64,000 nucleotides of DNA from Eubacteriales bacterium (GCA_045537905.1 JAZSQJ010000015.1:3574-67573); one strand, 5' to 3'. Counted from the first letter of the stretch, positions 1,977 to 60,234 are shown. Numbers and translations are program-made. The notes: generated from the sequence alone by a model not told the origin.

Positions 1977-3650
1977 TTACTGCTTTTTAATATCGTTTCT
2001 CTTTATCTTTTTGGAGGAGGTCTTAGGGAACTCCTCGTCACGGATAACAACCTTGTGTATGTGCTTGTAGGAGGGAAGCCCCTTAAGCATGGCCTGTATA
2101 TCAGCCTTAAATATTTCTTCATAGCTTCTGCCGTCCTTGGGCATAAGCTCCTTATCAAGATAACCCTCAGCACAAAGGTCAACCTCGGCGCCTTTTTCGT
2201 CCTTAACGGAGTAAACAACCGCATCCTTAACGTAGGGAATGGAGTAGATGTAGTTTTCTATCTCCTCGGGGTAAATGTTCTTACCGTTGTCAAGTATGAT
2301 AAGATTCTTTTTTCTGCCGGTAATATAAAGACTGCCATCGGTGTAGTGACCAAGGTCACCGGTGTGGAACCAACCGTCAACAAGAACCTCGGCGGTCTGT
2401 TCGGGGTCTTTGTAGTAGCCCATCATAACCACGTCGCCCTTAACGCAAATTTCACCGTTGCTGTTTTCGTCCTTGTTGTCTATCTCAATCTCAAGGCAGG
2501 GAAGTACAACGCCTACAGAGTCAAAATTGTTGTTATGGCACTGGTTTACGGAAACAAGAGGAGAACACTCTGTAATGCCGTAGCCGATCTCAAGGTCTAT
2601 ACCGATGCTGGTAAAGAACGCGCCAACCTCGGCTCTTACAGGCGCGCCGCCGCAAACAAGCTGACGAAGCTCACCGCCAAAGTTGTCTATAATCTGCTTG
2701 AAGAACTTACGGCGAAAGTCTATGCCTATCTTTTTCAAGCCGTTGCTAAGCTTTATCATCTTTCTTACAAGACCAGCCTTGCCCTTTTCCTCAAGAGCCG
2801 CCCAGACACGCTTATAAAACAGCTCTGCAAAAGCGGGTACGATAAACATATACTCAGGCTTATAAAGCTGGATATTGGCAAGCACTGCACGCAAGGACTC
2901 GTTAATACAAATACAGTTGTGCTTGTGTATGCTTACAAGCACACCGATAACAGCCTCGTAGGTGTGGTGGTAGGGAAGCACGGAAAGGCATCTGCCGCTT
3001 ACGTCCTCGACCATAAGACCGTAGTTCAAGGCAGAACGCAGGTTGTGCTGTGAAAGCATAACGCCCTTAGCGTTGCCCGTTGTACCGGAGGTGTAAACCA
3101 GCATCTTAAGCTCCATATCAGGGCTTGTTTTTTCCGTATAAAGGCTGTAGCCCTCAGCCATAAGCTGACGGCCTTCGTCGATAAGGGAATCAATAGAGAT
3201 GGGTTCATCACCGTCAAGGCAAACTACAAGCTTAACATTTTCAAGCTCCTTGGCGCCGGAGGTAAACAGGGGAACAAAGGCCTTATCACAAAAGATAACA
3301 ACGCTCTCGCTATGCTCAATAACGTGAAGCTTATCCTTCTCGGGCAAGTCCTTATCAACGGGAACGATTATATTAGAGCCGCAAAGGGTACTTACGTAGG
3401 TAACAATCCAGTTATAGCTGTTTGCGCCGACGCAAGCTATATGACAGCCCTTGTCAAAGCCTCTGTTTGAAAGAGCGTTACCAAGACATATAGTCTGCTC
3501 ATAAAACTCCTTACAGCCAACCTCTACAGGCTTTCCTGCCTTTTTATGTATAAACAAGGTCTTGTCACCCATAGCGGCAACAGCCTTTTCCATCATATCA
3601 CGGATTGAGTCTATCGTAACGACTTCGTTATACTTAATCTTTTTTGCCAT
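1977..3650 (-). CDS. AMP-dependent synthetase/ligase (long-chain fatty-acid--CoA ligase-like)
   Basis: Adenylate-forming motifs YTSGTTGNAKGVMLSQHNL and WFHTGDLGHYTDGSLYITGRKKNLIILDNGKNIYPEEIE. I prefer the ATG at 3650 (MAKKIKY) because a GGAGG(G) lies 4-5 nt upstream. The ORF-track start at 3662 has no RBS. Confidence 0.85.
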   Translation of the reverse strand: MAKKIKYNEVVTIDSIRDMMEKAVAAMGDKTLFIHKKAGKPVEVGCKEFYEQTICLGNALSNRGFDKGCHIACVGANSYNWIVTYVSTLCGSNIIVPVDKDLPEKDKLHVIEHSESVVIFCDKAFVPLFTSGAKELENVKLVVCLDGDEPISIDSLIDEGRQLMAEGYSLYTEKTSPDMELKMLVYTSGTTGNAKGVMLSQHNLRSALNYGLMVEDVSGRCLSVLPYHHTYEAVIGVLVSIHKHNCICINESLRAVLANIQLYKPEYMFIVPAFAELFYKRVWAALEEKGKAGLVRKMIKLSNGLKKIGIDFRRKFFKQIIDNFGGELRQLVCGGAPVRAEVGAFFTSIGIDLEIGYGITECSPLVSVNQCHNNNFDSVGVVLPCLEIEIDNKDENSNGEICVKGDVVMMGYYKDPEQTAEVLVDGWFHTGDLGHYTDGSLYITGRKKNLIILDNGKNIYPEEIENYIYSIPYVKDAVVYSVKDEKGAEVDLCAEGYLDKELMPKDGRSYEEIFKADIQAMLKGLPSYKHIHKVVIRDEEFPKTSSKKIKRNDIKKQ

Positions 3651-3805
3651 AAAACCCTCCATAAAAAATAAAAACCGATGTAATTGTTAACACTATTATA
3701 CATAGTTTTCATTACTATGTCAATAGGCGGGCAATAAGTTTTTTTATTTTTCTTGACTAAATGACGTGCTTGTGTTACAATGCTTTAAGAAATGGAGGAA
3801 TTAAA

Positions 3806-4318
3806 ATGCTTAGTCTGGACGAGATAAAGGCGTATCGCAGTCCCCGTTGGGACAAGCTGCCTGATATAGATTTGTATATGGATCAGGTGCTGGTGGTGCT
3901 TGACAAGTATCTTTGTATATTCAAAAACAGTGAGGATGAGAAGATAATCACCTCTGCAATGATAAACAACTACGTAAAGCAGAAGATTACCAAGCCCCCT
4001 GTAAACAAAAAGTACACCCGCTATCACGTGGCGTTTTTGTACGTGGTGTGCGTGCTTAAAAACTTTGTAAGCCTGTCGGATATCTGCATAGGCGTAGGCT
4101 CTCTGTTAAGCGGCAGACACTCTGCCGAGGCGTTTGATATGTTTTGTGAGGAGCTGGACGCCGCCCTTGCCGTTACCTTTGGCGATGGGGAGGATAGCAG
4201 GAAAAAGCCTGTTACCGACGAGGAGAAGATACTTCGTGCCGTAACCACAGCCAGTGCAAATATGCTTTATGCAAAGTACTTTATATCCGCAAAGCAAGGG
4301 GAGCCTAAGGATGAATAA
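3806..4318 (+). CDS. DUF1836 family protein
   Basis: GGAGG lies 7 nt upstream of the ATG at 3806. It carries the signature LYMDQV...SAMINNYVKQKITKPPVNKKYTRYHVAFLYVVCVLK. It overlaps the next CDS by 8 nt. Confidence 0.75.
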   Translation: MLSLDEIKAYRSPRWDKLPDIDLYMDQVLVVLDKYLCIFKNSEDEKIITSAMINNYVKQKITKPPVNKKYTRYHVAFLYVVCVLKNFVSLSDICIGVGSLLSGRHSAEAFDMFCEELDAALAVTFGDGEDSRKKPVTDEEKILRAVTTASANMLYAKYFISAKQGEPKDE

Positions 4319-4797: not shown

Positions 4798-4835
4798 AAA
4801 GGGCTGTAAAAAACTCTGTTTTTTACAGCCCTTTT
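4798..4835. terminator. bidirectional-looking intrinsic terminator after ybaK
   Basis: AAAGGGCTGTAAAAAA / ctctg / TTTTTTACAGCCCTTT, a perfect 16-bp stem with A and T tracts. Confidence 0.65.
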
Positions 4836-5304: not shown

Positions 5305-6465
5305 TCATCCCTGTACCAGACCGAGAATCAAACCGCCTGCGATAACGGAAGCGATCTGACCGGAAACGTTAGCTGCGGTGGAATGCATAAGCAAGAAGTT
5401 CTGGGGGTCTTCCTTAAGTCCCATCTTATGGATAACACGGGAGGACATAGGGAAGGCAGAAATGCCGGCAGCACCGATCATGGGGTTAACCTTCTTCTTG
5501 GAGAACAGGTTCATAAGCTTACCAAGCATTACGCCGCCAATGGTATCGAATACAAAGGCAAACAGACCAAGACCCATAATAAGGAGGGTAGCGGGCTTAA
5601 GGAAAGCCTCGCCTCTCATAGTGAAGGCGATGGTAATACCAAGGAACAGGGTAACAAGGTTAGCAAGCTCCTTCTGGGCGGTCTGAGAAAGGTTGTCAAG
5701 CACGCCGCACTCTCTGATAAGGTTACCAAACATAAGGAAGCCAACGAGAGCAACGGAAGCGGGAGCAAACAGACCTGCAAGCACGGTAATTATAATGGGG
5801 AAAAGTATGCGTGTTGTCTTGGAAACGGAAGCAGGCTTGTATTCCATTCTTATCATACGTTCCTTTTTGGTGGTGATAAGACGGATAACGGGGGGCTGGA
5901 TAATAGGCACAAGTGCCATATAGGAGTAAGCCGCAACGGTGATAGCACCGATATAGTTGGAATTAAGCGCACGGGAAACAACTATAGCGGTAGGACCGTC
6001 AGCCGCACCGATTATACCGATAGAAGCCGCATCCTTGATGTCGAAGAAGAAGCTGGCTACAAAATAGGTGAAGAAAATACCAAACTGAGCTGCAGCGCCA
6101 AACAACAGCATCTTGGGGTTGGAAAGCAGGGGGCCGAAGTCAATCATCGCACCTATACCGATAAAGAGTATAAGGGGGAAGAGCTCGTTAGCGATACCTG
6201 CGTTATAAAGAGTCTCAAGAACCTCAGAAACGCCCTCGGCAGGAACAAGATTGCCTGCGGCATCCATCTGCAAGGGGGTAGGTAGGTTCATAAGTATTGC
6301 GCCAAAGCCCATAGGGAGAAGCAGTGTAGGTTCCATATCCTTTTTTATCGCAAGATAAATAAGGATAGCGCCGATAAGCCACATAACAGGCATTTGCCAT
6401 TCTATGTTGCCAAAGTAGCGAAACAGTATCTGTATACTATCCATTACGTAACAGCGGCAGTTCAA
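5305..6465 (-). CDS. sodium ion-translocating decarboxylase, beta subunit (OadB/GcdB/MmdB family)
   Basis: Polytopic membrane protein with the family-typical N-terminus ...LAIKKDMEPTLLLPMGFGAILMNLP... The TTG at 6465 has GGAGG 6 nt upstream. The alternative ATG is at 6444. Confidence 0.85.
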   Translation of the reverse strand: MNCRCYVMDSIQILFRYFGNIEWQMPVMWLIGAILIYLAIKKDMEPTLLLPMGFGAILMNLPTPLQMDAAGNLVPAEGVSEVLETLYNAGIANELFPLILFIGIGAMIDFGPLLSNPKMLLFGAAAQFGIFFTYFVASFFFDIKDAASIGIIGAADGPTAIVVSRALNSNYIGAITVAAYSYMALVPIIQPPVIRLITTKKERMIRMEYKPASVSKTTRILFPIIITVLAGLFAPASVALVGFLMFGNLIRECGVLDNLSQTAQKELANLVTLFLGITIAFTMRGEAFLKPATLLIMGLGLFAFVFDTIGGVMLGKLMNLFSKKKVNPMIGAAGISAFPMSSRVIHKMGLKEDPQNFLLMHSTAANVSGQIASVIAGGLILGLVQG

Positions 6466-6536
6466 GCCGCACCTCCTAAAATATTTCCATTTATTTTAAC
6501 TCATTTGTAAGCTTTTGTCAACTGATAAATTAGCCT

Positions 6537-7217
6537 CTAAAAGAATTTACCGTTTCTTAGGAGAGATTTATCCGTTATTCGAAAACTGTTTTTATAATAT
6601 TCAATAAGTCCTTCCTTTTTCATCTTAGAAAGCTCTCTGGAAAGGGCACTTCTGTCCACGTTAAGGTACCTGGCAAGGCCCTCCCGGTCAAAGGGCAGCT
6701 CAAAGGTAGCGGTGCCTGTTTTGCCGTGCATATAATTAAGCAAGCGTATAATCTTATCCCTGATGGTGGTGGCAGAAATACAAATCATCCTGTCCATCAG
6801 GGTAAAGTATTTTTCCGCATAAATCTTTGCAAGGTTTGAAAGCAAAACGCGTCTCTCCTCTGCAAAATCAAGGGATGGCGTCAGCAAGGACTCAAAGGGT
6901 ATAAACAAGGCTGTGCAGGGCACCGTGCTTATAAGGGCAACGGGACTTCGCATAGTATCGTTTGCGGCAAGAAAATCAGCAAAAATCTCACCAACGCCCA
7001 GGCTGGAGATAAGAGTGCTGTCACCGTCAAAGCCAAGGTGTACCGCCTCAATACTTCCTTCCAGCACAATACCCAGCTTGTCGGTACGGTCTCCCTGGTT
7101 AATAATAACCTCCCCCTTACCAAAGCTGCGCTTTACTGCACCTAAGGCTTGCTTAAGCTCTGCCAGTCTGTCCTCCGTAATGCCTGCAAACAAATCACGT
7201 TCCTTCTTAGTTTTCAT
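6537..7217 (-). CDS. Crp/Fnr family transcriptional regulator
   Basis: N-terminal cyclic-nucleotide-binding-like beta-roll (GEVIINQGDRTDKLGIVLEGSIE) and a C-terminal HTH (REGLARYLNVDRSALSRELSKMKKEGLIEY). Confidence 0.85.
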   Translation of the reverse strand: MKTKKERDLFAGITEDRLAELKQALGAVKRSFGKGEVIINQGDRTDKLGIVLEGSIEAVHLGFDGDSTLISSLGVGEIFADFLAANDTMRSPVALISTVPCTALFIPFESLLTPSLDFAEERRVLLSNLAKIYAEKYFTLMDRMICISATTIRDKIIRLLNYMHGKTGTATFELPFDREGLARYLNVDRSALSRELSKMKKEGLIEYYKNSFRITDKSLLRNGKFF

Positions 7218-21950: not shown

Positions 21951-22364
21951 ATGAAACGCACGGTAATTAATACCCTTACCCTTGTTTTTACTTTAACAAT
22001 ACTTGTTCTGTTCAAGGTCTACGGAGACGGTATGAGTCTCAGTCAAAAAGCGTTTATCCTGATAGTATGTGTAGGTATACTTCTTATCAGGATACTTGGC
22101 GAGCTTTTGTATTTGCGGTATGTGCGCAAGCTGCTTGACACCTCTGCGGCAGACGCCGTTCCCCTTTGGGCGGGGCTTAAAATAATAAAGGACAGCGAAT
22201 TTGCCTGTCCCAACTGCGGCAGCCATTTCAAAAAGAAGTGGTGGCACTATACCTTTTCCTTTTTAAGGCATAGAGCTATTGCCTTGTGCACCTTTGGTAA
22301 AACCAATTTCCGTTGCCCCCATTGCAAAAAGTTTGACACCTGTGTTAAAGTCCATAAGGACTGA
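21951..22364 (+). CDS. small membrane protein with C-terminal zinc-ribbon (CPNC...CPHC)
   Basis: AAGGAG RBS. Two hydrophobic helices are followed by CPNCGSHF...FRCPHCKKF. Confidence 0.6.
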   Translation: MKRTVINTLTLVFTLTILVLFKVYGDGMSLSQKAFILIVCVGILLIRILGELLYLRYVRKLLDTSAADAVPLWAGLKIIKDSEFACPNCGSHFKKKWWHYTFSFLRHRAIALCTFGKTNFRCPHCKKFDTCVKVHKD

Positions 22365-22405
22365 CAGGAAAGGGGGATAAATCGTCTTGTAAAGGACTTA
22401 ATTCT

Positions 22406-22939
22406 ATGAAGAAAGAAATTTTAACTACCGAAAACATCAAAAAGGATTTAAGTAGACACTTTTTTAACAGAATAAAAAAATTTCCGATCGCGCTGACTGT
22501 GTGTATAGCTGTGACGTATGCCGGTTCATCTTTCCATCAGGGAAGGTCATTTGAAAACAAACTCGTAATTGTTCTTTTAGCTATTAGTTTAATAATGATA
22601 TCTTACGCTTTGGTAACAATTATTATAGGTTTAATTCAAACCAAAAAGGGGAAATTTACAATTACAACGGACTGGGTTGTTGATAAAGCGGGCGTGGTAG
22701 GCGGAAGCTCTGCCAGAGGTACAATAACGTACAGGCTTATATTTGCTAAAAGCGGTGCGTGTGACATACCATTCGGCATAAATTATCAGTGGTCAAAGAT
22801 GTTTGCAACATCAGCCGAAACGCTTTATGAACATACTGAGATAAACGAGGAGTTTTACGTGATACACTTGGGGAAAAAGAACGTTATGGCGTACAGGAAA
22901 AAGCATTTTGAGCTTGAAAACTTGCAGGTATCGCAATAA
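22406..22939 (+). CDS. hypothetical 2-TM membrane protein (paralog A of tandem pair)
   Basis: It has an RBS and two TM helices. Shared paralog motifs are KFTITTDWVV, YQWSKMFATSAETLYEHTEINEEFYVI and YRKKHFEL. Confidence 0.65.
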   Translation: MKKEILTTENIKKDLSRHFFNRIKKFPIALTVCIAVTYAGSSFHQGRSFENKLVIVLLAISLIMISYALVTIIIGLIQTKKGKFTITTDWVVDKAGVVGGSSARGTITYRLIFAKSGACDIPFGINYQWSKMFATSAETLYEHTEINEEFYVIHLGKKNVMAYRKKHFELENLQVSQ

Positions 22940-22977
22940 ATAAGCCAAAGCATATCCTATTGTAAGGGGGCTGTTTT

Positions 22978-23547
22978 ATGAAAAAAGAAATTTTAACTAT
23001 CGAAAACATCAAAAAGGATTTAAGAGCCGTCTTTTATAGCAGCTTCAAATCTAAGCCTCTGTATATTTTGATGTTACTGCTCTTATATTTTATTATGAAG
23101 GTCTATTTGTTGATTCTTTTTGATCCGAGTGATTCGTTCAAAACCAAATTCGCTATTATTTTTTGGACCATTTGTATTATCGGATTCGCTTATGATCTGA
23201 TAAATCAAGTTATATGTTTAAGGAAGATCAAAAACGGAAATTTTACAATTACGTCGGATTGGGTTGTTGAAAAAAAGAACAAGAGATATGGTTTTAGGAT
23301 TTTTGGGATAAGATTTTTCCCAAAACATAATAGATTTATTTTTGCTAAAATCGGTGAGTATCCCGTAACAGCCGGCAAATGGTATAAGTGGTCCGAAATG
23401 TTTGCAACAACGGGTAGAGTCCTTTATGAAAACACCGATATAAACGAGGATTTTTACATAATAAGCATTGAGGATATCCTTGGGAATATACATAATCTTG
23501 TAGTGTACAGGAAAAAACATTTTGAATTAAAAGAGCAACTCGCATGA
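22978..23547 (+). CDS. hypothetical 2-TM membrane protein (paralog B of tandem pair)
   Basis: AAGGGGG RBS and the same architecture as 22406-22939. Motifs are NFTITSDWVV, YKWSEMFATTGRVLYENTDINEDFYII and YRKKHFEL. Confidence 0.65.
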   Translation: MKKEILTIENIKKDLRAVFYSSFKSKPLYILMLLLLYFIMKVYLLILFDPSDSFKTKFAIIFWTICIIGFAYDLINQVICLRKIKNGNFTITSDWVVEKKNKRYGFRIFGIRFFPKHNRFIFAKIGEYPVTAGKWYKWSEMFATTGRVLYENTDINEDFYIISIEDILGNIHNLVVYRKKHFELKEQLA

Positions 23548-23572
23548 TTTTTCTATAAGAAAGGGAAATGCT

Positions 23573-24037
23573 ATGTACAGTGTAGAAGAAGGCAACGATG
23601 ACCTCAGAAGAAAAGAGCTGTTCAGCATAACAACTATGCTTATATCTACTGCAGTTTTGGCGATTTTTATTTGGGCAACGGTGTTAAGATACGGTATAAG
23701 CGGCCCCTATGTGGTTATTTATGCATTGTGGTTTTTCCTTAGCCTACGGTATACAAGGGGTTACCTCTTTTTAACTCCCCGTAAGCGTTACGGTACCGTA
23801 ACGGCTATAAAGGATTTTAAGGAAACCCAGTATAGCGAAAACGGCGGTGCGGGCAGGCGTTACCAAAGAAGATATGCCATTATAACCGAGTGTACCCTTA
23901 GCGTAGCCTTTGACGGCGGCAAAACGGGCGACTTTGTTTTTGTTTACAAGGGCGAGCTTAAAAAACTAAACCTTGGCGACCGTATCGGTATATTCCGTTT
24001 TCTGAAAATGCCCGTGTGGGAAACAAATCCCAAGTAA
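23573..24037 (+). CDS. hypothetical 2-TM membrane protein
   Basis: Two N-terminal hydrophobic helices, then a small beta-rich soluble segment (GTVTAIKDFKETQYSENGG...). It is on the same strand and closely spaced with its neighbours. Confidence 0.55.
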   Translation: MYSVEEGNDDLRRKELFSITTMLISTAVLAIFIWATVLRYGISGPYVVIYALWFFLSLRYTRGYLFLTPRKRYGTVTAIKDFKETQYSENGGAGRRYQRRYAIITECTLSVAFDGGKTGDFVFVYKGELKKLNLGDRIGIFRFLKMPVWETNPK

Positions 24038-24156
24038 GCTTTTGGTAAAAAACAAACCCAAGGGGGTAAACAAAAATGGCAAAAAGGCTTTCTGCGGGCA
24101 GCAGAGCTTAACGTAGCGGATAGATATTTTTGTAAATACGATAAGGAAGAATAAAT

Positions 24157-24579
24157 ATGCTTGTAGATATATGCATCGTCTCCGCCGTGTTACTGGTAGG
24201 GCTGTACTATCTGACAATAGCAATTTTGGGTCTGTTTCCAAAGTTCAGAGCTACGGCAGTGGGCACCTTAAGCAAGGCAAAGACCTATAAACACGTTCCG
24301 AAAAGACACGGCGGCACGATTCCTCATTTAACCAAATACGTATATCTGTATACCGTCAACGGAAAGGTTTACCGTCATAAGGGAGAGGGGCGTTATTCCA
24401 AACGCCGTCTTCATCCCAAAGGACAAATAGTGTATGTAAAAGGTTTTCCACGCCACGCTTATCTTAATAAGTTCAGAGGGGAAAAGGAATGGATATGGGG
24501 CGTGACATTGCTTATTTGCGGATTGATGTTGCTTGTGGTATTGTTTCGCAATTTTTCGGAGGGTTATTATAATATATAA
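24157..24579 (+). CDS. DUF3592-like membrane protein (TM - beta domain - TM)
   Basis: AAGGAAG RBS. TM1 is VSAVLLVGLYYLTIAILGLF. The central segment ATAVGTLSKAKTYKH...YLYTVNGKVYRHKGEG is typical of DUF3592 architecture. TM2 is WIWGVTLLICGLMLLVVLF. Confidence 0.55.
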   Translation: MLVDICIVSAVLLVGLYYLTIAILGLFPKFRATAVGTLSKAKTYKHVPKRHGGTIPHLTKYVYLYTVNGKVYRHKGEGRYSKRRLHPKGQIVYVKGFPRHAYLNKFRGEKEWIWGVTLLICGLMLLVVLFRNFSEGYYNI

Positions 24580-24707: not shown

Positions 24708-25949
24708 ATGAAAAGAACAAAGCTATTAATAAGCTTGCTGTTGCTATGCGCATTGGCTGTCAATCTGGCAGGCTGTGCAAAGGCAGGGGCAACAAACCTT
24801 ATGGACGGTATAACCCCCCGCTTGTTGGATTTAAGAGTGGACTTAAGTCTACAAAACCCAAACGTAACCGATTTTGCCGTCCGCCTGTTTAAGGCAAGTG
24901 AAGAAAAGGGCAAAAACACTCTTGTCTCTCCCTTATCCGTCCTCAGCGCTTTGGCAATGACCGCCAACGGTGCTCAGGGTGAGACCCTGTCTCAGATGGA
25001 GTCTGTCTTTGGTATCAGATCCAAGGAGCTTAACGAATATATGTACACGTATATGGATACTCTTCCCACGGGAGACAAATACAAGCTAAGCCTTGCAAAC
25101 TCCATCTGGTTTACAGACTCCCTTGATGTAAGCGGTAGCTTTTTGCAGACCAACGGAGATTATTACGGAGCCGATATCTACAAGGCGCCCTTTGACAGTC
25201 AAACCTGCGGTGAAATAAACGCCTGGGTTAAGGAAAAGACCGAGGGGATGATACCCGAAATTATAAAGCAGATACCGGAGCAGACTGTTATGTACCTTAT
25301 AAACGCCCTTGCTTTTGAGGCGGAATGGTTAAGGGTTTACGAAAAAAGCCAGGTAAGTGAGGGCGAGTTTACCAAGGAGGACGGCACCAAGCAGAAGGCT
25401 GATTTTATGCACAGCCAAGAAGGTAGCTATCTGGAGGACGAAAGGGCAACGGGCTTTATAAAATACTACAAGGACAGAAAATACGCTTTTGTAGCTATGC
25501 TCCCCAAGGAGGACGTAAGTCTGTCCGACTACGTTGCATCCCTTCAAGGCGACGCCTTGAATACACTGCTGAAAAATCCCCAATACACAACGGTTTATGC
25601 CTCTATCCCCAAGTTTGAAACCGAGTATAATGCGGAGATGAAGGACGTTTTGAAGGGGATGGGAATGCCCAAAGCCTTTGACCCGCAGGATGCGGAATTT
25701 GGCAGAATGCTGGAAGGAGGCGCGGCAGACCTTCATATCGGCGGAGTGATACACAAAACCTTTATCTCCGTTGGAGAAAAGGGAACCAAGGCAGGTGCGG
25801 CAACGGCTGTGCATATGGATTTGGCAGGGATGGAGACCCCCGAGGAAATCAAGGAGGTAAAGCTGGACAGACCCTTTGTGTATATGCTCATTGATTGCAA
25901 AAACAACGTTCCCTTCTTTATGGGAACGATGAGGGACATAGAAAAGTAA
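24708..25949 (+). CDS. serpin-family protease inhibitor, lipoprotein
   Basis: Lipobox LAGC after a signal peptide. Serpin core motifs NTLVSPLSVLSALAMTANGAQGETL and NALAFEAEWL. Inhibitory-type hinge GEKGTKAGAATAV followed by DRPFVYMLID. Confidence 0.9.
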   Translation: MKRTKLLISLLLLCALAVNLAGCAKAGATNLMDGITPRLLDLRVDLSLQNPNVTDFAVRLFKASEEKGKNTLVSPLSVLSALAMTANGAQGETLSQMESVFGIRSKELNEYMYTYMDTLPTGDKYKLSLANSIWFTDSLDVSGSFLQTNGDYYGADIYKAPFDSQTCGEINAWVKEKTEGMIPEIIKQIPEQTVMYLINALAFEAEWLRVYEKSQVSEGEFTKEDGTKQKADFMHSQEGSYLEDERATGFIKYYKDRKYAFVAMLPKEDVSLSDYVASLQGDALNTLLKNPQYTTVYASIPKFETEYNAEMKDVLKGMGMPKAFDPQDAEFGRMLEGGAADLHIGGVIHKTFISVGEKGTKAGAATAVHMDLAGMETPEEIKEVKLDRPFVYMLIDCKNNVPFFMGTMRDIEK

Positions 25950-44538: not shown

Positions 44539-44630
44539 TACTTTTTTGTATTTTTTATGTTTATTTTTATTGAAAAATCCACGGTGTTTTGTTATACTGT
44601 TTATCGGTATTTATACAAGCGGAGGTCGTT

Positions 44631-46886
44631 ATGAGATACAAAATACTGATTGCTGTTTTATGTCTGTTTTCTGTAATCCTTTCTTTCGGGGCCTGCGGTT
44701 CTGAACAGGTAAGCCCCTCGGACTCCTCTGAGTTAATCAGTGCAGAAAGCACTGACAGCAGTGAGGAAACAAGCGAAGATATCAGCGAGGAAATATTAAC
44801 CCTTCCCGCAGGGGAGCTTAAAGACACGTCAAGCGGTAAAACAACCCCCCGTCTGGTACAAACCCTTTATCCCACGGAGGACGTGGTGATAGCTGATATT
44901 ATCCCTACCGAGGACGGCTATGCGGTAGGAGATAACGGCATAGGTGACAGCACGGCAGGCATACAGAAGGCGCTTAACGACTGCTTTGACAATGGGGGCG
45001 GTACCGTATATCTCCCTGCAGGCATCTACGCCATTTCAGGCAAAATATTCATCCCTCCCTTCGTTACTCTGCGAGGGGATTGGCAGGACCCCGACAAGGG
45101 CACGGACTACGGTACGGTAATCTTTGTGTATAACGAAAGCAAGGAGGACTACGCCAAGGGCAAAACCGTTACCGAGGGTATATTTAACCTTGGCGGCTCC
45201 GGCGGTGTTCTGGGGCTTACCGTCTATTATCCCAACCAGTCCGTAAATAACGTAAAGCCCTATCCCTTTACCTTTTACAGCGACGGTATGGGTGCAAACT
45301 ATATGCTGTCTACCGTGAAGAACGTTACGGTAATCAACGGCTATCGTGGTATCGGTGCCTGCTGTCTTAACACCAACCAGGGGGGCGGTGCTCACGAGCA
45401 GTTAACGGTAGAAAACTTTAAGGGCACCTTCCTTTATTGCGGTACCGAGGTTTACAACCAAGCCGATGTAGGCACCTGGCAAAACGTAAGCGTAAGCAAC
45501 AAATACTGGAAGGAGGCCAAGGGGGAGGGCATCCGCGCCGTAGACGGCGTAAAGCTTGATACTTATACCAAGAAAAACACGGTGGGACTTAAGCTGGGCG
45601 ACCTTGAGTGGACGGAGTTCGAGGGCCTTAGTGTAAGCGGCTGTAAAATCGGTATAGAGATACTTAAGGGCAAGCGTATAAGGTTTGCAGGCTCTATCCA
45701 CAACGTAGATATAAGAGATTGCACTACAGGCATTAAGCTTAACGACCTTGACAGCCGTTGGGGTATGCTTATCAGTGAGGGCGTAATAGAGGGCGGCATC
45801 CAAAACAAGGCGCTGGGTCTGGTTAAGCTGTGCGGTGTAAAGGTAAGCGGCACCTTAAAGGGCAAGACCGAGCAGGATGACAGTGCGGATATATCCTCCT
45901 ATGATATAGACTATAACAGAAGCTATACCAAGCCGGTTTCCGTGTTGTATGTGGCGGAGTTGGACGGCACGGGCAAAACCGACGTAACGTCAGCTCTCCA
46001 AAGCACTCTGGATACTGCAGGCAAAACGGGCGGCGTAGTGTACCTGCCTGCAGGCAGATATAAGCTGGAGGGTTCGGTAAGCGTACCTGCAGGGGTAGAG
46101 CTAAGAGGTGCAAGCTCCGTAGCCGGCAGAGACCAAGGGGGGATGAGTCTTGGCACGGTAATCTACTGCTACTACGGTGACGATGAACCGGTAAAGCCCG
46201 ATACGGACAAAGCCTTTATAACTCTGTCGGGTAAAAATGCTGGAATTAACGGAATCCGCATAATATACCCCGAAAACGGCCCCTTTGACAGGGACCTTAA
46301 CACAACCTATACAGTCCGTGGCACCGCCGAGGGCGTGTATTTTGTAAACGGTATGATATCCGCCTCGGGCTACGGCGTAGACTTCCGCGGCTGTGACGGG
46401 CACTTTATTAAAAAGGTAAGCACCTGCTGCTACTACAACTCCTACCTGTTGGGCGGAGAGGGCGGAATGCTTAACGGCTGTCTGCAAAACGGTACTGTAA
46501 TCTACCGCACAGACTTAAATACAGGCTTCCTGCATAATTGGCCCACCAACGAGGCACAAATCTGGAACGAGCTGTTTAACCCCATAACCCGTGCCTACAA
46601 CCAATTCATAATAGCAGAGGGAGCAAAGAACCAGCAGATATACAACACCTTTATTTACGGTTGTGCAAATATGCTGGTATGCAAGGACTCTACGGTGTTG
46701 GCGGTGAATATCGGATCCGACAACATCGGCGCTGCCCAGTTGGTTGCAGAAAGCGGCGAAATGACCGTAATCAACGCTATGCGATACAACGGCACGTCCT
46801 ATAAGCACAGCGGCGGTATACTCAGGCTGTACAACAGACTGACGATAAATGATAAAACAGAAAAAACCGTTATTATAGGTGAATAA
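44631..46886 (+). CDS. lipoprotein with two right-handed beta-helix (Pectate_lyase_3-type) domains, GH55-like architecture
   Basis: GGAGG RBS and lipobox SFGAC. Two copies of the N-cap motif are present: DSTAGIQKALNDCFDNGGGTVYLPAGIYAISGKIFIPPFVTLRG and TDVTSALQSTLDTAGKTGGVVYLPAGRYKLEGSVSVPAGVELRG. Confidence 0.65.
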   Translation: MRYKILIAVLCLFSVILSFGACGSEQVSPSDSSELISAESTDSSEETSEDISEEILTLPAGELKDTSSGKTTPRLVQTLYPTEDVVIADIIPTEDGYAVGDNGIGDSTAGIQKALNDCFDNGGGTVYLPAGIYAISGKIFIPPFVTLRGDWQDPDKGTDYGTVIFVYNESKEDYAKGKTVTEGIFNLGGSGGVLGLTVYYPNQSVNNVKPYPFTFYSDGMGANYMLSTVKNVTVINGYRGIGACCLNTNQGGGAHEQLTVENFKGTFLYCGTEVYNQADVGTWQNVSVSNKYWKEAKGEGIRAVDGVKLDTYTKKNTVGLKLGDLEWTEFEGLSVSGCKIGIEILKGKRIRFAGSIHNVDIRDCTTGIKLNDLDSRWGMLISEGVIEGGIQNKALGLVKLCGVKVSGTLKGKTEQDDSADISSYDIDYNRSYTKPVSVLYVAELDGTGKTDVTSALQSTLDTAGKTGGVVYLPAGRYKLEGSVSVPAGVELRGASSVAGRDQGGMSLGTVIYCYYGDDEPVKPDTDKAFITLSGKNAGINGIRIIYPENGPFDRDLNTTYTVRGTAEGVYFVNGMISASGYGVDFRGCDGHFIKKVSTCCYYNSYLLGGEGGMLNGCLQNGTVIYRTDLNTGFLHNWPTNEAQIWNELFNPITRAYNQFIIAEGAKNQQIYNTFIYGCANMLVCKDSTVLAVNIGSDNIGAAQLVAESGEMTVINAMRYNGTSYKHSGGILRLYNRLTINDKTEKTVIIGE

Positions 46887-46894
46887 TAGCAAAA

Positions 46895-46922
46895 GACGCA
46901 GACATTAAAAACGTTCTGCGTC
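46895..46922. repeat. terminator hairpin, left copy of a 28-nt direct duplication flanking element copy A
   Basis: GACGCAGAcattaaaaacgtTCTGCGTC is identical to 47145-47172. Only this copy keeps the upstream AAAA tract. Confidence 0.9.
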
Positions 46923-47144
46923 AGCTTGATGACAAACCTTGTCATCAAGCTGGCAGAGTGCTGAGAAAGAGTACAGACAAGACGAACCGAGGCGATAACT
47001 GTACTAAGTACTGTGAGCCGAGGTTCGTTTTGAACGAAAAAACAAATAAAATGTAGAAAATTCAGGAAAATTTCCCCTGAATTTTCTACTTTAGAATGAG
47101 TATATTTTGTTCTTTTTCGTGCTCTGTGCCTTTGTCAGCGGTCT
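46923..47144 (+). mobile_element. ~222-nt non-coding structured repeat (MITE-like), copy A
   Basis: About 95% identical by eye to the reverse complement of 59473-59696. It has imperfect terminal inverted repeats (C)AGCTTGATGACAAA / (C)AGACCGCTGACAAA and three strong internal hairpins. These are AGCTTGATGACAAaccTTGTCATCAAGCT, GACGAACCGAGGC...GCCGAGGTTCGT and GTAGAAAATTCAGG...CCTGAATTTTCTAC. It has no ORF. Confidence 0.75.
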
Positions 47145-47172
47145 GACGCAGACATTAAAAACGTTCTGCGTC
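47145..47172. repeat. terminator hairpin, right copy of the 28-nt duplication
   Basis: Identical to 46895-46922. Only this copy is followed by TTTTTT. Confidence 0.9.
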
Positions 47173-47211
47173 TTTTTTGTTAGATAGTACTAAAAAATTA
47201 ATATATAGCTA

Positions 47212-47278: not shown

Positions 47279-50200
47279 ATGTATAAAAGAATAACAACAA
47301 AAGTATTGTCCTATAAAAGAATAACAACAAAAGTATTGTCCGCAATGCTCAGTTTTTTGATGGTGCTTAGCGTTTTTGTCTTCGTGCCTCCAAAGGACAC
47401 CGCCGTTTCTGCCGCTGGCTATTACAAATGGAGCGGATATGCTACCTATCTGCAGGGCGCAGGTACCGAGGACGACCCGTTTTTGATAAACACACCAAAC
47501 GAGCTGGCTTATTTCCGTAAGCAGGTAAGTGCAACGGATGGCACAATAAGCTATTATGCCAATAACGATACCACTACCACCGCAAAGACCAAGGATGCCC
47601 AGGCGGCTTTCTATAGGCTCACCACAGACATATACTATAACGACCCTAACGGTACTGAGTGGGAAAGCTGGTCGGATACCGTGGGTCCCACCAACGGCGG
47701 TGCCTCTATCCACAAATGGGCACCTGCAGGCTACGATAACGAAAGCACCCGCCGTTTTCAAGGCTGCTTTGACGGCGACGGCCACACGATCTATGGCTTG
47801 TACATAGCATATCCTGACAAGAACTGCATTGGCTTTATAGGCTCCTTCCGTTACGGCACTATAAAGGACCTTACACTGGCAAAGGGCTATGTAAGCGGCG
47901 CCAACCTTGTAGGCGGATTTGTGGGTCAGGCAAAGGTTTGCACCGAGCTTATCAACTGCCACAGCACCCTCCGTGTAAAGGGTGCTATAGGTGTAGGCGG
48001 TCTTGTAGGCGGTAACCCTAAGGACGCTACCGCCCCTTATACCGACGTCGACGTAAACAGCGAGGCAACCATAGCCAACTACGTGTTGTACAACTGTAGC
48101 AACGGTGGTGACGTCAGCGGTACCCACTACGTAGGCGGTCTGGCAGGCATAGTAAGTGCAGGCTCCTCCAGAGTGCAGATATACAGGTCAAGCAACAGCG
48201 GTACTGTCAGTGCAACAACCAATTGTACGGGCGGTATACTTGGTGGTGTAAGCGAAGTGGACAATTTCGGACACAGCCACATACAGCACTGTGTAAACAC
48301 AGGTAAGATACAGGGCGGTACAGGCTATTATACAGGCGGTATAGTAGGCTGTGGCAGAGCTATTGAGGTTGAAAACTGTATAAACCATTCCGATATAAGT
48401 GCAAACGGAGCAATATACACGGGCGGCATCTCGGGCGGCTGTAATTCCGGAGACGGTCTTTCCAACAGCAAGGTAAAAAGCTGCTTTAACTACGGTAACG
48501 TAACGGGTACCCAGTATACCGGCGGTATAATAGGCGTTGCAAAAAGCACTAATGTAAATATGTGCGGTAATATCGGCAACGTTAAGGGAAGCTCCTATGT
48601 TGGGGGTATTTCAGGCAAGTCCGGCGGTAGTAACGATAACCGTGATACCGAGCTTTACGATTGCTACAACACAGGCAGTGTTACCAGCACCGACAATAGT
48701 AGCAGTGTTGCAGGTATTGTGGGCGAGGCATACTGCGAGGGTACGGTAAGCGACAACAAGTTTGTAAAGGTTAAACGCTGTATCAACCTTGGTGCGGTAA
48801 CGGGTGGCAGGGCGATTGCCAACACCACCAGCACTCTTATGAACAGCGCGGGGACAGGTCTGTTTGTGTATCAGTATGCAAATACCTGCTTTGGTCTTGC
48901 AGGGGTAAACACCGGCTTTGACGGCGGTGTAGCGGTAAGCTCCCTTGCAAGCAAGGAGGTGCTTGATAAGCTTAATGCAGGTGGCGCCTGGTCCGCAGGC
49001 TATCCTTATCCCACTCTTAACAGCATTCCCTATGAGCACCAGGGCAGGTCAGAGATGTTTGGCGTAGCAGACGTTAAGGCAGCAAACGCTCCTGCACTGG
49101 AAATAAGCTATAAGATAAATACAGCAAACAGCTACTACAAAAGCCTTTCTGCATTCGATATAGAACACGGCGTGCTTGCAGTCAAGAGCGAGACTCTTGG
49201 CGAGGCAGAGCTTACGGCAAGCACCAACGGCGTTATCAACTGTAAGGGCAATCTCTCCTCCTCTACGGTAAATGCCGTTCTCGGCAACGTATCGGCAGAT
49301 GACTTTGACGATATGTTTACCCTCCGTCCCTACGCAGTATTCACCGTAGAGTCTGTACAGATTTACGTTTACGGCACCCCTACGGAAAGCTCGTTTTACA
49401 CCGCAAAGGGCAGTGCAGACATATCTGCCATAAGCAATACAGCTGCATTCAGCTGTGACGAAAAGCTGTTTTTGCTTACGGGCACTACAGACAAAATCAA
49501 TACAGGCATCATCTCCTCGGGTGAGAACGAAAGCATAAGCTTTATCTCTGCAGACCCCACCGTTGCTACCGTCAGTGGCGGCACGGTAAAGGGACTTAAA
49601 GCGGGCGTTACCGACGTTACCGTAACCTATACAGGTCCCTGGGGTGCAAAAACCGGGCACTGCAAGGTAACGGTGCTTAACGACCTAACAAGCACAGTTT
49701 ACGCCAACCAATATGCAGAAAAGACCGGAGACCTTCGTCTCCACACAAACAAGCTTGTCCGTGTAGGTACTACCAACAAAAACGACGCCTTTGTTCTTGA
49801 CTTCAACGGTACCGTGATTATGATAGACGGCGGTAATAGAAATGACGAGTCCTTGAAGTATCTTCTTAAGCTCCGTGACGAGTTTTTGGAGGAGGGCTAC
49901 AAAAACGGCTTGCTTACCGAGTCTCAGTATTACCGGAGACTGCTTTCCGACAAGTGTAAGATACAGCTTACAAGTCTTATAACCCACTGGCACTCTGACC
50001 ATATCTATGCTCTTCGCTACGTTATCAACCAAAGCACCAGAGTTGCTATCAACGAGATGTATACCGTAAAGGCACCTGCGGGCACCGATGCTGAAAGCTA
50101 CAACAGTTATATTTTGGCCCATGATAGGATGATAACGGCGCTGCAGACCAATAATCCCAATATGGTGGAAAACCGCTTTGATTACGAAACGAAGGTAGTT

Positions 50201-58316: not shown

Positions 58317-59354
58317 CTATGTTTTTACACTCTTGGAAAACTCTACAAGCTGCTTACGAGAAGCAACCCCCAGCTTGCCGTAGATGTTTTTGTTATGGAA
58401 TTTAAGTGTGTTTTCCGTAATCCCCAACATACTCATTACGTCCTTGGTGGATTTTCCCTCCAGATAAGCGTCATATATAAGCCTTTCCGTTTTTGTCAGG
58501 GAAGCCAGACCGTTTTTGTATAGCTGTAAAAGCTCTTTATCCACGATAATAGGAGCCGTTTTGCTTTTATTTTCCTCGCCCAGCTCAGAAATTTGTTCCT
58601 TAAGCCTGTTTTGCTCGGCAATAAGTATATTAAGTCCAAGCAAAAACAGCTCACTTATTATGTACGATACGGAAAGCAGCTCAAAGCCTATGTTAACAAG
58701 CTGTTCAATAAACCACAGACCTATATTAATAAAAACTGCCATTACAAGAATAAAGGTGTGAACCTTGTTCTCCAGCGTCTTTTTGCGTAGTGCGTAAATA
58801 ATAGTGTAAACCATTGCAGAAAAATATCCTACAAGATACACAAGATAAACGCCGTGCAAGGGACCGTAAACCTTTTTAAGCACCGAAAACCCGTCAAGGC
58901 TTACAAGATAAACCTCTTTATAGTAAATATCTAAGTAACCGGGACTGGCGGCAATCAAAAACACCACGCCGCCAATACCTAAAAGAAGCATAACCACAAG
59001 CCGCTTGCATTTAATTTTCATAGCGTCAAGCATTATCATAAGCATTGAAAGGGGTAAAAATACCGAGCCCAGATAGGAAAGCCTGTTAGCCATAAGGGCA
59101 TTCCCCAGCGTGTCCGAAACGGAAAGCCATAAATACCCAAGGTTTACTACAAAAACCGAGGATAACAATACCGTATACCAAAAATCCTTTTTCCTTGATA
59201 AAAAGGTATAGCAGGCAAGCACGCCAAAAGCAATTAAAGCGGTAACAGCGTAAACCATCGAAAGGTTAGCGGTTTTGTTGTCAAATATCTCGTTGTTAAA
59301 AAGCACAAAAGTAAGCATAGCCGTAGGTATGCAAAACCAAAGCAGCTTTTTCAT
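58317..59354 (-). CDS. membrane-embedded LuxR-family transcriptional regulator (7-8 TM sensor domain + C-terminal HTH)
   Basis: GGAGGG RBS. About 250 aa of TM helices precede the LuxR-type HTH LTKTERLIYDAYLEGKSTKDVMSMLGITENTLKFHNKNIYGKLGV. Confidence 0.8.
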   Translation of the reverse strand: MKKLLWFCIPTAMLTFVLFNNEIFDNKTANLSMVYAVTALIAFGVLACYTFLSRKKDFWYTVLLSSVFVVNLGYLWLSVSDTLGNALMANRLSYLGSVFLPLSMLMIMLDAMKIKCKRLVVMLLLGIGGVVFLIAASPGYLDIYYKEVYLVSLDGFSVLKKVYGPLHGVYLVYLVGYFSAMVYTIIYALRKKTLENKVHTFILVMAVFINIGLWFIEQLVNIGFELLSVSYIISELFLLGLNILIAEQNRLKEQISELGEENKSKTAPIIVDKELLQLYKNGLASLTKTERLIYDAYLEGKSTKDVMSMLGITENTLKFHNKNIYGKLGVASRKQLVEFSKSVKT

Positions 59355-59440: not shown

Positions 59441-59472
59441 AAGGTGTTGGCAGAAATTACAGCCAACGCCTT
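59441..59472. repeat. terminator hairpin, one copy of a 32-nt direct duplication flanking element copy B
   Basis: AAGGTGTTGGCagaaattacaGCCAACGCCTT is identical to 59697-59728 except for one base (T at 59445 versus C at 59701). Confidence 0.9.
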
Positions 59473-59696
59473 CAGACCGCTGACAAAGGCACAGGGCACG
59501 AAAAAGAATAAAATATACTCATTCTAAAGTAGAAAATTCAGGGAAAATTTCCCTGAATTTTCTACATTTTATTAGTTTTTTCGTTCAAAACGAACCTCGG
59601 CTTACAGTACTTAGTACAGTTATCGCCTCGGTTCGTCTTGCCTGCACTCTTTCTCAGCACTCTGCCAGCTTGATGACAAGGTTTGTCATCAAGCTG
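59473..59696 (-). mobile_element. ~222-nt non-coding structured repeat (MITE-like), copy B, inverted relative to copy A
   Basis: Its reverse complement aligns end to end with 46923-47144, with roughly 8-10 mismatches by eye. It has the same three hairpins and the same termini, with one extra C and G at the junctions. Confidence 0.75.
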
Positions 59697-59728
59697 AAGG
59701 CGTTGGCAGAAATTACAGCCAACGCCTT
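59697..59728. repeat. terminator hairpin, second copy of the 32-nt duplication
   Basis: AAGGCGTTGGCagaaattacaGCCAACGCCTT has an 11-bp stem. It lies 6 nt after the stop of the CDS at 59734-60234 (minus strand). Confidence 0.9.
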
Positions 59729-59733
59729 ACATT

Positions 59734-60234
59734 TTAGTTGTCTTGTTTTTTGAAAAGTGCCATCAGGTCACAAACAGCCTCATAGCTGATAAAGCTGTCC
59801 TGGTTGTGATTTGCGCTTATACATTCACCGTTTTTGTATTCTACGTAAAGGTAAGCGCCGTACATATCGGGCAGTCCGCTGACACACACGTTTATTCCGT
59901 TGTGCTTTGCAAAACCGTAGACGGTTACAAGCTCCTGCAGCTTATCCATAAAGCCGGCAGACGCTGTAAAGCAATGCTGTTCCTTGCGGCATTTATAGCC
60001 AGCCTCTACCTTGTCTTCCGCAAGTCTTGCTGTAAAGGTAAATACATCCCGAAAAACATCCTCGTCCGCCAAATCAAGGGTAGAAGCAGTGCATTCAAAC
60101 GCAATTATCTCGGTACAGCTGATTGCCTTGGCAGCGCTATGATTGCTGCGGTCAATCGTTCCGCCGTCAACGATTTCTTCCTCAGGCACTTGGCCTTTCC
60201 TGCCCAAAATGCTATTCAATAGTTTTTCCATCAT
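59734..60234 (-). CDS. hypothetical cytoplasmic protein
   Basis: ORF of 166 aa with an AAGGGA RBS, no signal peptide and no recognisable family. It lies downstream of a lipoprotein gene on the same strand. Confidence 0.55.
   Translation of the reverse strand: MMEKLLNSILGRKGQVPEEEIVDGGTIDRSNHSAAKAISCTEIIAFECTASTLDLADEDVFRDVFTFTARLAEDKVEAGYKCRKEQHCFTASAGFMDKLQELVTVYGFAKHNGINVCVSGLPDMYGAYLYVEYKNGECISANHNQDSFISYEAVCDLMALFKKQDN

Follow-up and report, generated by a model that had tools for sequence, protein, structure and literature searches.

A miniature element of gut Clostridia flanked by duplicated terminator hairpins of variable length

Introduction

Two places in the 64,000-nt stretch of Eubacteriales DNA analysed here (the window) raise one question: how does a short non-coding sequence come to lie between two copies of a complete stem-loop, when the stem-loop is a different one at each place? 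An earlier note, made from the sequence alone, had drawn attention to these two places and had read the stem-loops as target-site duplications whose length equals that of the hairpin. The sequence between them is a MITE, which is a known kind of element, and its unusual property is a target duplication that takes in a whole hairpin and varies in length.

Copies and boundaries of the element

The window contains two copies of a non-coding element of ~224 nt, which lie in opposite orientation and are 96% identical (the earlier estimate, by eye, was about 95%). Together they form an inverted pair (46921–47146 and 59472–59697; 226 nt, 96% complementary), and each is flanked by hairpins specific to its own site.

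46922–47145, plus strand: non-coding MITE copy A, 224 nt with the terminal C and G counted; ends C-AG...CT-G set by the empty site described below
59473–59696, minus strand: MITE copy B, also 224 nt; identity with copy A 96%
46895–46922, no strand: left target hairpin of copy A; A-tract kept, T-tract lost; identical to 47145–47172
47145–47172, no strand: right target hairpin of copy A; T-tract kept (47173–47178)
59441–59472, no strand: target hairpin of copy B, 32 nt, distal to the gene it terminates; 31 of 32 positions match 59697–59728
59697–59728, no strand: second target hairpin of copy B, directly 3' of the stop codon of a 166-aa gene

Copy A resides between a Pect-lyase-like gene (44589–46886) and the promoter of a gene for a 1321-aa dockerin protein (47279 onwards), and its left hairpin is the terminator stem-loop 3' of the Pect-lyase-like gene, which ends at 46886. 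The two 28-nt hairpins that flank it, both GACGCAGAcattaaaaacgtTCTGCGTC, match each other perfectly, with the A-tract on the left only and the T-tract on the right only, just as the earlier note had described. Copy B resides between the stop codon of the 166-aa gene (59734–60234, minus strand) and the start of a LuxR-type regulator gene (58317–59354, minus strand). Its hairpin is unrelated to that of copy A; the claim of a duplicated but different 32-nt hairpin holds, with a duplication that is imperfect at one position (T59445 against C59701).

The termini follow the pattern CAGCTTGATGACAAA...TTTGTCAGCGGTCTG. Other copies and the empty site show that the C that precedes AGCTT and the G that follows GGTCT are parts of the element, which corrects the length originally given, 222 nt, to 224 nt. 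As the terminal C and G belong to the element, the duplication at copy A comprises 26–28 nt with an ambiguity of 1 nt per side: the core duplication is 46896–46921, and G46895 and C46922 can be assigned either to the target or to the element.

A perfect 30-nt tandem duplication at 47282–47341 (TATAAAAGAATAACAACAAAAGTATTGTCC, twice) repeats 10 codons that directly follow the start codon of the gene for the 1321-aa dockerin/Big_2 protein, and the 82%-identical relative contains a single copy of the 30-nt unit. Elsewhere in the window, five small ORFs (137–189 aa) without a Pfam match form a run at 21951–24579, downstream of an HTH gene and the gene for a 2062-aa beta-helix protein and followed by a serpin gene (24708–25949); two of the five are paralogous (direct repeats D8 and D13, 73–82% identical).

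Distribution and recent activity

The search for further copies in related genomes, which the earlier note had suggested, used the left-end hairpin to scan the contigs of a one-genome-per-species set, and it returned at least 64 loci in at least 8 related Clostridia MAGs. Gut samples, from goat and sheep among others, are the source of the eight uncultured Clostridia MAGs to which nearly all of these loci, cited below by their L numbers, belong. BLAST combined with mapping of the ends identified ~35 full copies among the matches listed, plus many copies broken by contig ends. Copies within the MAG RGIG1907 are 97–99.6% identical, and the median identity between genomes is 81%; the high identity within RGIG1907 therefore points to recent activity. 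The element is a multicopy, lineage-restricted, and recently active repeat. It is small, lacks a transposase gene, possesses terminal inverted repeats, exhibits a target duplication relative to an empty site, and occurs as dispersed near-identical copies, all of which place it among the MITEs.

BLAST of the element against plasmid and phage collections gave no relevant match, and exact-pattern scans of JGI metagenomes (with the copy-A site and with a conserved internal 20-mer) and of viral contigs (with both ends) gave 0 hits. A peptide search based on the element's open reverse frame yielded no more than 3 called ORFs, which contributed two extra copies and no parent.

In L041 (167–1486), two MITE copies surround an ~880-nt segment with two small genes, and one 34-nt hairpin occurs three times, once to the right of copy a and once on either side of copy b; this arrangement may have arisen by local rearrangement or by composite movement. 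The MITE-flanked genes of L041 and L056 were considered as a composite transposon, which was rejected because the genes are unrelated. In L039 (3221) and L024 (137), orthologous genes of two MAG species each have a MITE in the terminator with unrelated flanking hairpins, so that either the site was hit independently in each species, or the insertion is old and the hairpins have since turned over.

Anatomy of the element

The following parts are distinguished in copy A.

46923–46951, plus strand: terminal hairpin H1 (AGCTTGATGACAA acc TTGTCATCAAGCT), an outer terminal-repeat-like sequence with its own inverted copy
46954–46977, plus strand: inner left inverted repeat (CAGAGTGCTGAGAAAGAGTACAGA), pairs with the right terminus at 13 of 16 positions
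46978–47032, plus strand: stem-loop H2, conserved, with a symmetric GA/GA internal loop, within the conserved left block (nt 1–125)
47053–47089, no strand: central hairpin with A-tract and T-tract, resembling a bidirectional terminator; terminator-like match on the minus strand
47123–47145, plus strand: right terminal inverted repeat (TCTGTGCCTTTGTCAGCGGTCTG), marked by end conservation and by pairing with the inner left repeat

The left end folds into H1, a hairpin of 13–14 bp (folding z = -6.8), in which pairs 2:28, 3:27, and 4:26 are altered on both sides in 10–12 of 26 copies; across lineages, the paired substitutions in the stem read AGC/GCT, AAG/CTT, AGG/CCT, and AAC/GTT. The imperfect terminal inverted repeats claimed previously are present, and they are displaced relative to the original description, the best left partner being 46954–46977 (13/16) and not the outermost end, where the 14 terminal nt of the two ends match at only 10 of 14 positions. 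RNAalifold pairs columns 33–55 with columns 212–233, and the best partner of the right terminal 22 nt is the inner left repeat (nt 33–55). Since the right end pairs best with this inner repeat, the left end bears an extra, outer repeat-like copy that is folded as a hairpin.

Conservation is strongest in the first ~125 nt and the last ~32 nt, with a variable centre between them, and mean majority-base fractions are 0.92 (nt 56–125), 0.96 (last 32 nt), and 0.73 (centre). The sequence of the central hairpin is hypervariable, nearly every lineage having its own, but the near-perfect fold is kept throughout, and each of the pairs 138–149:163–174 has changed on both sides up to 10 times. The three strong internal stem-loops are present, and folding of the region as DNA gives z = -13.9 against shuffles. 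Copies measure 219–229 nt, or 251–264 nt when they contain a 40-nt mini-insert; the indels between them are not multiples of 3, and there is no coding capacity. No promoter-like site was found inside the element, and the Rfam/Infernal check, an Rfam 15 scan of the region that included the terminator-targeting group II introns, returned nothing near threshold (best E = 0.014–0.75, far below gathering scores). DNA palindromes also gain compensatory changes by template-switch correction, so that the paired changes do not in themselves prove an RNA function.

Several variants were observed among the copies. The H1 loop (element nt 14–16) flips between ACC and GGT in L002, L004, and L010. A hairpin mini-insert of ~40 nt, with conserved ends (ACCACCCC...GGGGACCCCG) and a variable core, occurs at two different positions inside the MITE, after nt ~52 in L008, L038, L043, L044, L056 (4052), and L062, and at nt ~85 in L029, L031, and L069; it may be a yet smaller mobile hairpin. 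Other insertion sequences have landed in the variable central region (L009 ~2930–4290 and L016 ~5880–6648): in L009, an IS3-family element (OrfA/OrfB) resides within the loop of the central hairpin, and in L016, an IS200-like element (Y1 transposase) resides at element nt ~126, just upstream of this hairpin. L037 (3274–3302) contains a solo MITE terminal hairpin (AAAGCTTGATGACAAaccTTGTCATCAAGCTTTTT) that serves as a gene terminator, with the rest of the element absent.

Flanking hairpins as target-site duplications

Among the matches listed, 30 full copies could be analysed at both flanks: 18 exhibit clean duplications, 6 exhibit the same hairpin in a decayed state, and 6 have chimeric flanks. 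The 18 clean direct repeats are 18–34 nt long and palindromic, with stems of 8–13 bp that extend from the repeat ends, and the decayed pairs differ by loop changes, tip deletions, or indels in an otherwise identical hairpin. Two further copies from other assemblies have hairpin duplications of 34 nt and 20 nt. In each of the copies analysed, the duplication is a palindrome centred on the hairpin dyad, and the hairpin differs by site. In most copies the repeat leaves out a left C and a right G, which yields an element of the form C-AG...CT-G.

Nearly every copy adjoins a hairpin rich in GC. The association of ends and hairpins was quantified with a strict criterion, a perfect stem of at least 7 bp that ends no more than 3 nt from the junction. 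Such a hairpin adjoins 46 of 62 left ends and 18 of 30 right ends among the loci listed, and 1.1% of 20,000 random positions, an enrichment of ~70-fold at the element ends; the ends that fail the test mostly adjoin hairpins with 2-nt loops or one mismatch. The duplication often falls 1–5 bp short of the longest palindrome that could form and stops where the GC-rich stem gives way to the A/T tract, leaving 0–5 further pairable bp outside, mostly A:T, and its first base is A in ~15 of 17 cases. The join thus usually lies at the boundary of a stable stem and an A/T tract, with some base preference; a duplication that stops short of the palindrome base and starts with A points to such a preference, or to an effect of stem stability, beside the recognition of structure.

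The copy in L012 (RGIG1907) provides an empty site. The trpB-like protein encoded beside it has a 99%-identical relative on two ENA contigs (L071 and L072, conspecific), which read ...AAAAAAGT ATGGGATGCAAAACATTTTGCATCCCAT TTAAAATT... with one 28-nt palindrome. At the same position, L012 has the palindrome, the 225-nt element, and the palindrome again, that is, 253 extra nt between flanks that are otherwise identical; this identifies the repeats at the two ends as target-site duplications covering the hairpin. In other MAGs, the orthologous regions between genes likewise contain a single terminator hairpin. From the single hairpin at both empty and orthologous sites it follows that the hairpins were pre-existing gene terminators that were duplicated on insertion. 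For the copies in the window, no empty site was found in the JGI exact-pattern scan (copy-A site) or in the nearest relative (82% aa identity), in which the copy-A site is a shorter intergenic region without hairpin and without element.

The central proposal of the earlier note, that the flanking hairpins are target duplications of hairpin length, is borne out by hairpins that are specific to each site and by their lengths of 18–34 nt, by the single native terminator at orthologous sites, and by the pair of L012 and L071/L072. The comparison of flanks across copies, which the note had recommended, gave clean hairpin duplications in 18 of the 30 copies among the matches listed, and the comparison with sister strains gave the single 28-nt palindrome at the L012 site. 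The hairpins are not conserved parts of the element, and the sister strains have one hairpin and no bare tandem pair.

Within one MAG, the left hairpin of L007 is the same as the right hairpin of L010, and L005 coincides with a synteny breakpoint relative to RGIG1907; recombination through the repeat, or joins made there in assembly, could account for the six copies with chimeric flanks.

Where the two copies of a duplicated hairpin differ, they do so almost always in the loop (L045, L056 (4052), L052, L062, L039, L070, L028, L015, and L006), through point changes and 1-nt indels and, in L028 and L015, inversion of the whole loop; a difference in the stem is seen in window copy B only. This restriction to the loop suggests template-switch events at hairpins or selection on stems. 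A recurrent hairpin family (AAAGGGGCTGTAAAAAAC...GTTTTTTACAGCCCCTTT) occurs alone and unoccupied at window 4800–4832, in L036 (4542–4580), in L033 (5386–5419), and in L050 (minus strand), and the same family forms the duplicated target in ~12 MITE copies (L028, L057, L009, L003, L031, L055, and others). The stem start of these hairpins, AAGGGGCTGT, is identical to the terminal repeat of ISClbu1 and IS1182, and the hairpin of L034 has 14 nt in common with an ISClbu1 end; the family may be REP-like or may consist of relics of insertion-sequence ends.

Proposed mechanism and alternative explanations

The element is probably a non-autonomous MITE for terminator hairpins that is moved in trans by a transposase joining its ends to the 5' feet of a hairpin or cruciform, and the duplication of the entire hairpin, at any length, suggests that the mobilising enzyme reads DNA shape and not DNA sequence. 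Structure-guided staggered cleavage at the base of the hairpin would be the most economical account. A transposase supplied in trans would recognise the target as a hairpin or cruciform and would join the element ends at the 5' feet of the extruded structure; the two join positions would sit side by side in the extruded cruciform, and gap repair would copy the whole stem-loop onto both sides. The stagger would be set by hairpin geometry, with no fixed ruler in the protein, and a duplication length that follows the hairpin and does not cluster at a single value speaks against such a ruler. Relative to co-directional flanking genes, 6 copies have the same orientation and 5 the opposite one; this lack of bias fits a symmetric double-stranded target and speaks against insertion into single strands exposed with a replication bias.

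A more elaborate version is possible but doubtful, in which the structure-reading transposase binds the extruded cruciform, the four-way junction spaces the two strand transfers, and the elements at times capture a duplicated hairpin as a new terminus. Capture would account for the covarying H1 and for a right end that resembles the 3' arm of H1, as well as for the solo H1 terminator in L037, the terminator-like left-end hairpins, and the diverse ends of IS1182-type elements. The structure-reading enzyme could also come from an undescribed family.

The duplications themselves can be read in three other ways, none of which fares well. A long fixed stagger of ~27–28 bp, with a preference for AT-flanked intergenic DNA and with the hairpin present incidentally, would suit copy A (26–28 nt), the copies near 27–28 nt (L004, L012, L032, L035, L043, and L056b), and the usual start of the duplication with A beside an A-tract. 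It is very improbable, as lengths range from 18 to 34 nt and are always centred on the hairpin dyad, hairpins adjoin ~74% or more of the ends and only 1.1% of random positions, and the survey reveals a trend of duplication length with stem-loop length. That the hairpins are part of the element, or are created by it, has next to no probability: each site has a different hairpin, empty and orthologous sites have a single palindrome, and for L012 the empty site refutes the idea, although at the copy-A site the 82% aa relative has neither hairpin nor element, and the left end of the element is a hairpin whose solo copy is a terminator in L037. Single-stranded movement by an HUH/Y1 enzyme, in the manner of IS200/IS605 or REP/RAYT with hairpins exposed on the lagging-strand template, deserves very little credence. 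Such systems do not produce target duplications and are strand-biased, whereas duplications and no orientation bias are found here, and the target hairpins are unique sequences and not one repeated REP family; the conserved left-end structure with compensatory changes in H1 and the choice of hairpins as targets would suit such an enzyme, and an IS200-like Y1 transposase gene does exist in one MAG (L016), but that element sits inside a MITE copy and does not flank one.

Two further alternatives concern the enzyme and the cargo. Mobilisation by a non-DDE integrase, for example a casposase of the Cas1 type or an enzyme resembling a junction resolvase, with staggered attacks at both borders of the palindrome, is unlikely. 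Its outcome would formally be that of CRISPR repeat duplication at spacer acquisition, and no DDE partner has been found; the window has no integrase domain either, cas1-like or other, casposon duplications are of fixed length, and the left-end hairpin architecture resembles that of IS1182-type ends (the similarity of the repeats is not significant). It is improbable that the element is in the main a mobile small-RNA or terminator module, with conservation of its 125-nt left block owed to an RNA function and not to transposition, for instance as a 3'-UTR-derived RNA of any gene that reads into it; this reading is compatible with movement in trans by a hairpin-targeting transposase. Conservation of the left block lies far above that of the centre (0.92 against 0.73), the GA/GA internal loop of H2 is typical of RNA motifs, and the central hairpin covaries and is terminator-like; against this stand the lack of an Rfam match and of a promoter-like site inside the element, the ability of template-switch correction to generate paired changes without RNA selection, and the occurrence of both insertion orientations relative to upstream genes.

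Search for the transposase or a parent element

No transposase or recombinase Pfam domain occurs among the 46 window ORFs of at least 110 aa, which agrees with the earlier statement that the window encodes no transposase. A longer autonomous relative with the same termini, the search for which had also been proposed, was found neither in the window nor in the 70+ loci, an absence that is weak evidence in MAGs as fragmentary as these. Duplicated hairpins 60–4000 nt apart flank only MITE copies in all loci, no multicopy ORFs are present in the 70+ loci, and tblastn with six IS1182-family transposases gave no match in any locus or in the window. L009 (1590 nt) and L016 were considered as autonomous forms and rejected, the former being a MITE with a nested unrelated IS3-family element and the latter a MITE with a nested unrelated IS200-like element. 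The likeliest source of the transposase may be an IS1182-family-like DDE enzyme, because hairpin targeting and a left-end terminal hairpin are in common, and this serves as a lead and not as a demonstrated membership.

Consequences of insertion and significance

After insertion, the hairpin copy nearest each flanking gene would be without a T-tract of its own, the copy on the far side would keep the T-tract, and the central bidirectional terminator-like hairpin of the element could terminate transcription in both directions. With the distal T-tract and the central hairpin, termination of the flanking genes would therefore be preserved and insertions would be nearly neutral, which would fit the abundance of the element at the 3' ends of genes.

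Each transposase normally leaves a target duplication of fixed form; here, the duplication length (18–34 bp) follows the secondary structure of the target. A whole-hairpin duplication of variable length was not described in the literature searched and is absent from the 2024 review of prokaryotic MITEs (PMC10969869). The many natural sites point to the recognition of terminator palindromes as hairpins or cruciforms in living cells, and with its ~224 bp, its defined ends, and its numerous natural targets, the element offers a compact system for structure-directed transposition and for the identification of its enzyme. For annotation, tandem identical terminators ~225 bp apart and contig breaks in these gut Clostridia MAGs are useful signatures, and chimeric flanks warn of mis-joins or rearrangements at copies of the element.

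Comparison with known systems

Several mobile elements insert into extragenic palindromes capable of forming hairpins, including the REP/BIME-targeting IS1397 and ISKpn1 (IS3 family) and the IS1111/IS621-type elements (IS110 family). These target one specific palindrome family, in the loop or at a fixed position, and create duplications of 0–4 bp. The targeting by IS1111 of a REP inside QMITE2 is mentioned in the MITE review (PMC10969869). The present MITE likewise targets palindromes, but it uses unrelated hairpins and duplicates the whole structure. Cas1–Cas2 and casposons duplicate an often palindromic unit by two staggered attacks at its borders and gap filling. They act, however, at sequence- and ruler-defined sites in one array and belong to another enzyme class, and no cas genes are present in the window. 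Duplications well above the usual 2–14 bp are produced by the IS1634 group (long and variable) and the IS1202 group (~27–28 bp); to our knowledge, these have not been reported as hairpin-defined, whereas each MITE duplication analysed is a palindrome. From IS200/IS605-type and REP/RAYT systems, the MITE differs by its target duplication, its lack of orientation bias, and the diversity of its target hairpins.

The closest parallels lie in the IS1182 family, for which ISfinder is said to list duplications of 0–60 bp. ISBst12 is not one of its members but belongs to the IS66 family. The E. faecalis copy of IS1182 has a hairpin at one end only, the left (z = -7.0), where the terminal repeat pairs with an inverted copy next to it, starting at nt 1 as in the MITE. 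Similar hairpins that start 4–7 nt in are found at both ends of ISClbu1 (z = -6.7 and -8.3) and at an end of a Lactobacillus (L. amylovorus) element (z = -3.5), whereas the left end of a Kurthia element does not fold; the left-end terminal hairpin is an architecture of several IS1182 members and not a formal criterion of the family. IS1182, ISClbu1, and the Lactobacillus element differ from the MITE in their size of 1.8–2 kb and in encoding a DDE transposase. The MITE ends align with 10 IS1182-family ends no better than shuffles do (P = 0.2–0.8), and the flanks of the six IS1182-family plasmid elements sampled, IS1272 (beside a plasmid-borne fabI) and five others, contain no hairpin duplication.

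IS1272/TnSha1 of this family, found in staphylococci, target terminator hairpins without sequence specificity (Furi et al., PMC4923244), and their target has been proposed to be a cruciform (PMC4923244, PMC5678879). The join made by IS1272 is at the 3' feet and eliminates the hairpin, and duplication through the 5' feet has been drawn as a hypothetical pathway (Wan et al., PMC5678879). Like the MITE, IS1272/TnSha1 use terminator-type hairpins without a primary-sequence consensus and in both orientations, and they contain extra repeat-derived sequence at the left end, which is a tandem terminal-repeat copy in IS1272L and a hairpin-folded outer copy in the MITE. The ends of IS1272 do not fold, whereas the left end of the MITE does (z = -6.8), and IS1272 removes the target hairpin without a duplication, whereas the MITE duplicates it. 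The element would thus work like a mirror image of IS1272, without being filed as a member of the IS1182 family, and it supplies the missing "duplication" counterpart to the hairpin-deleting IS1272.
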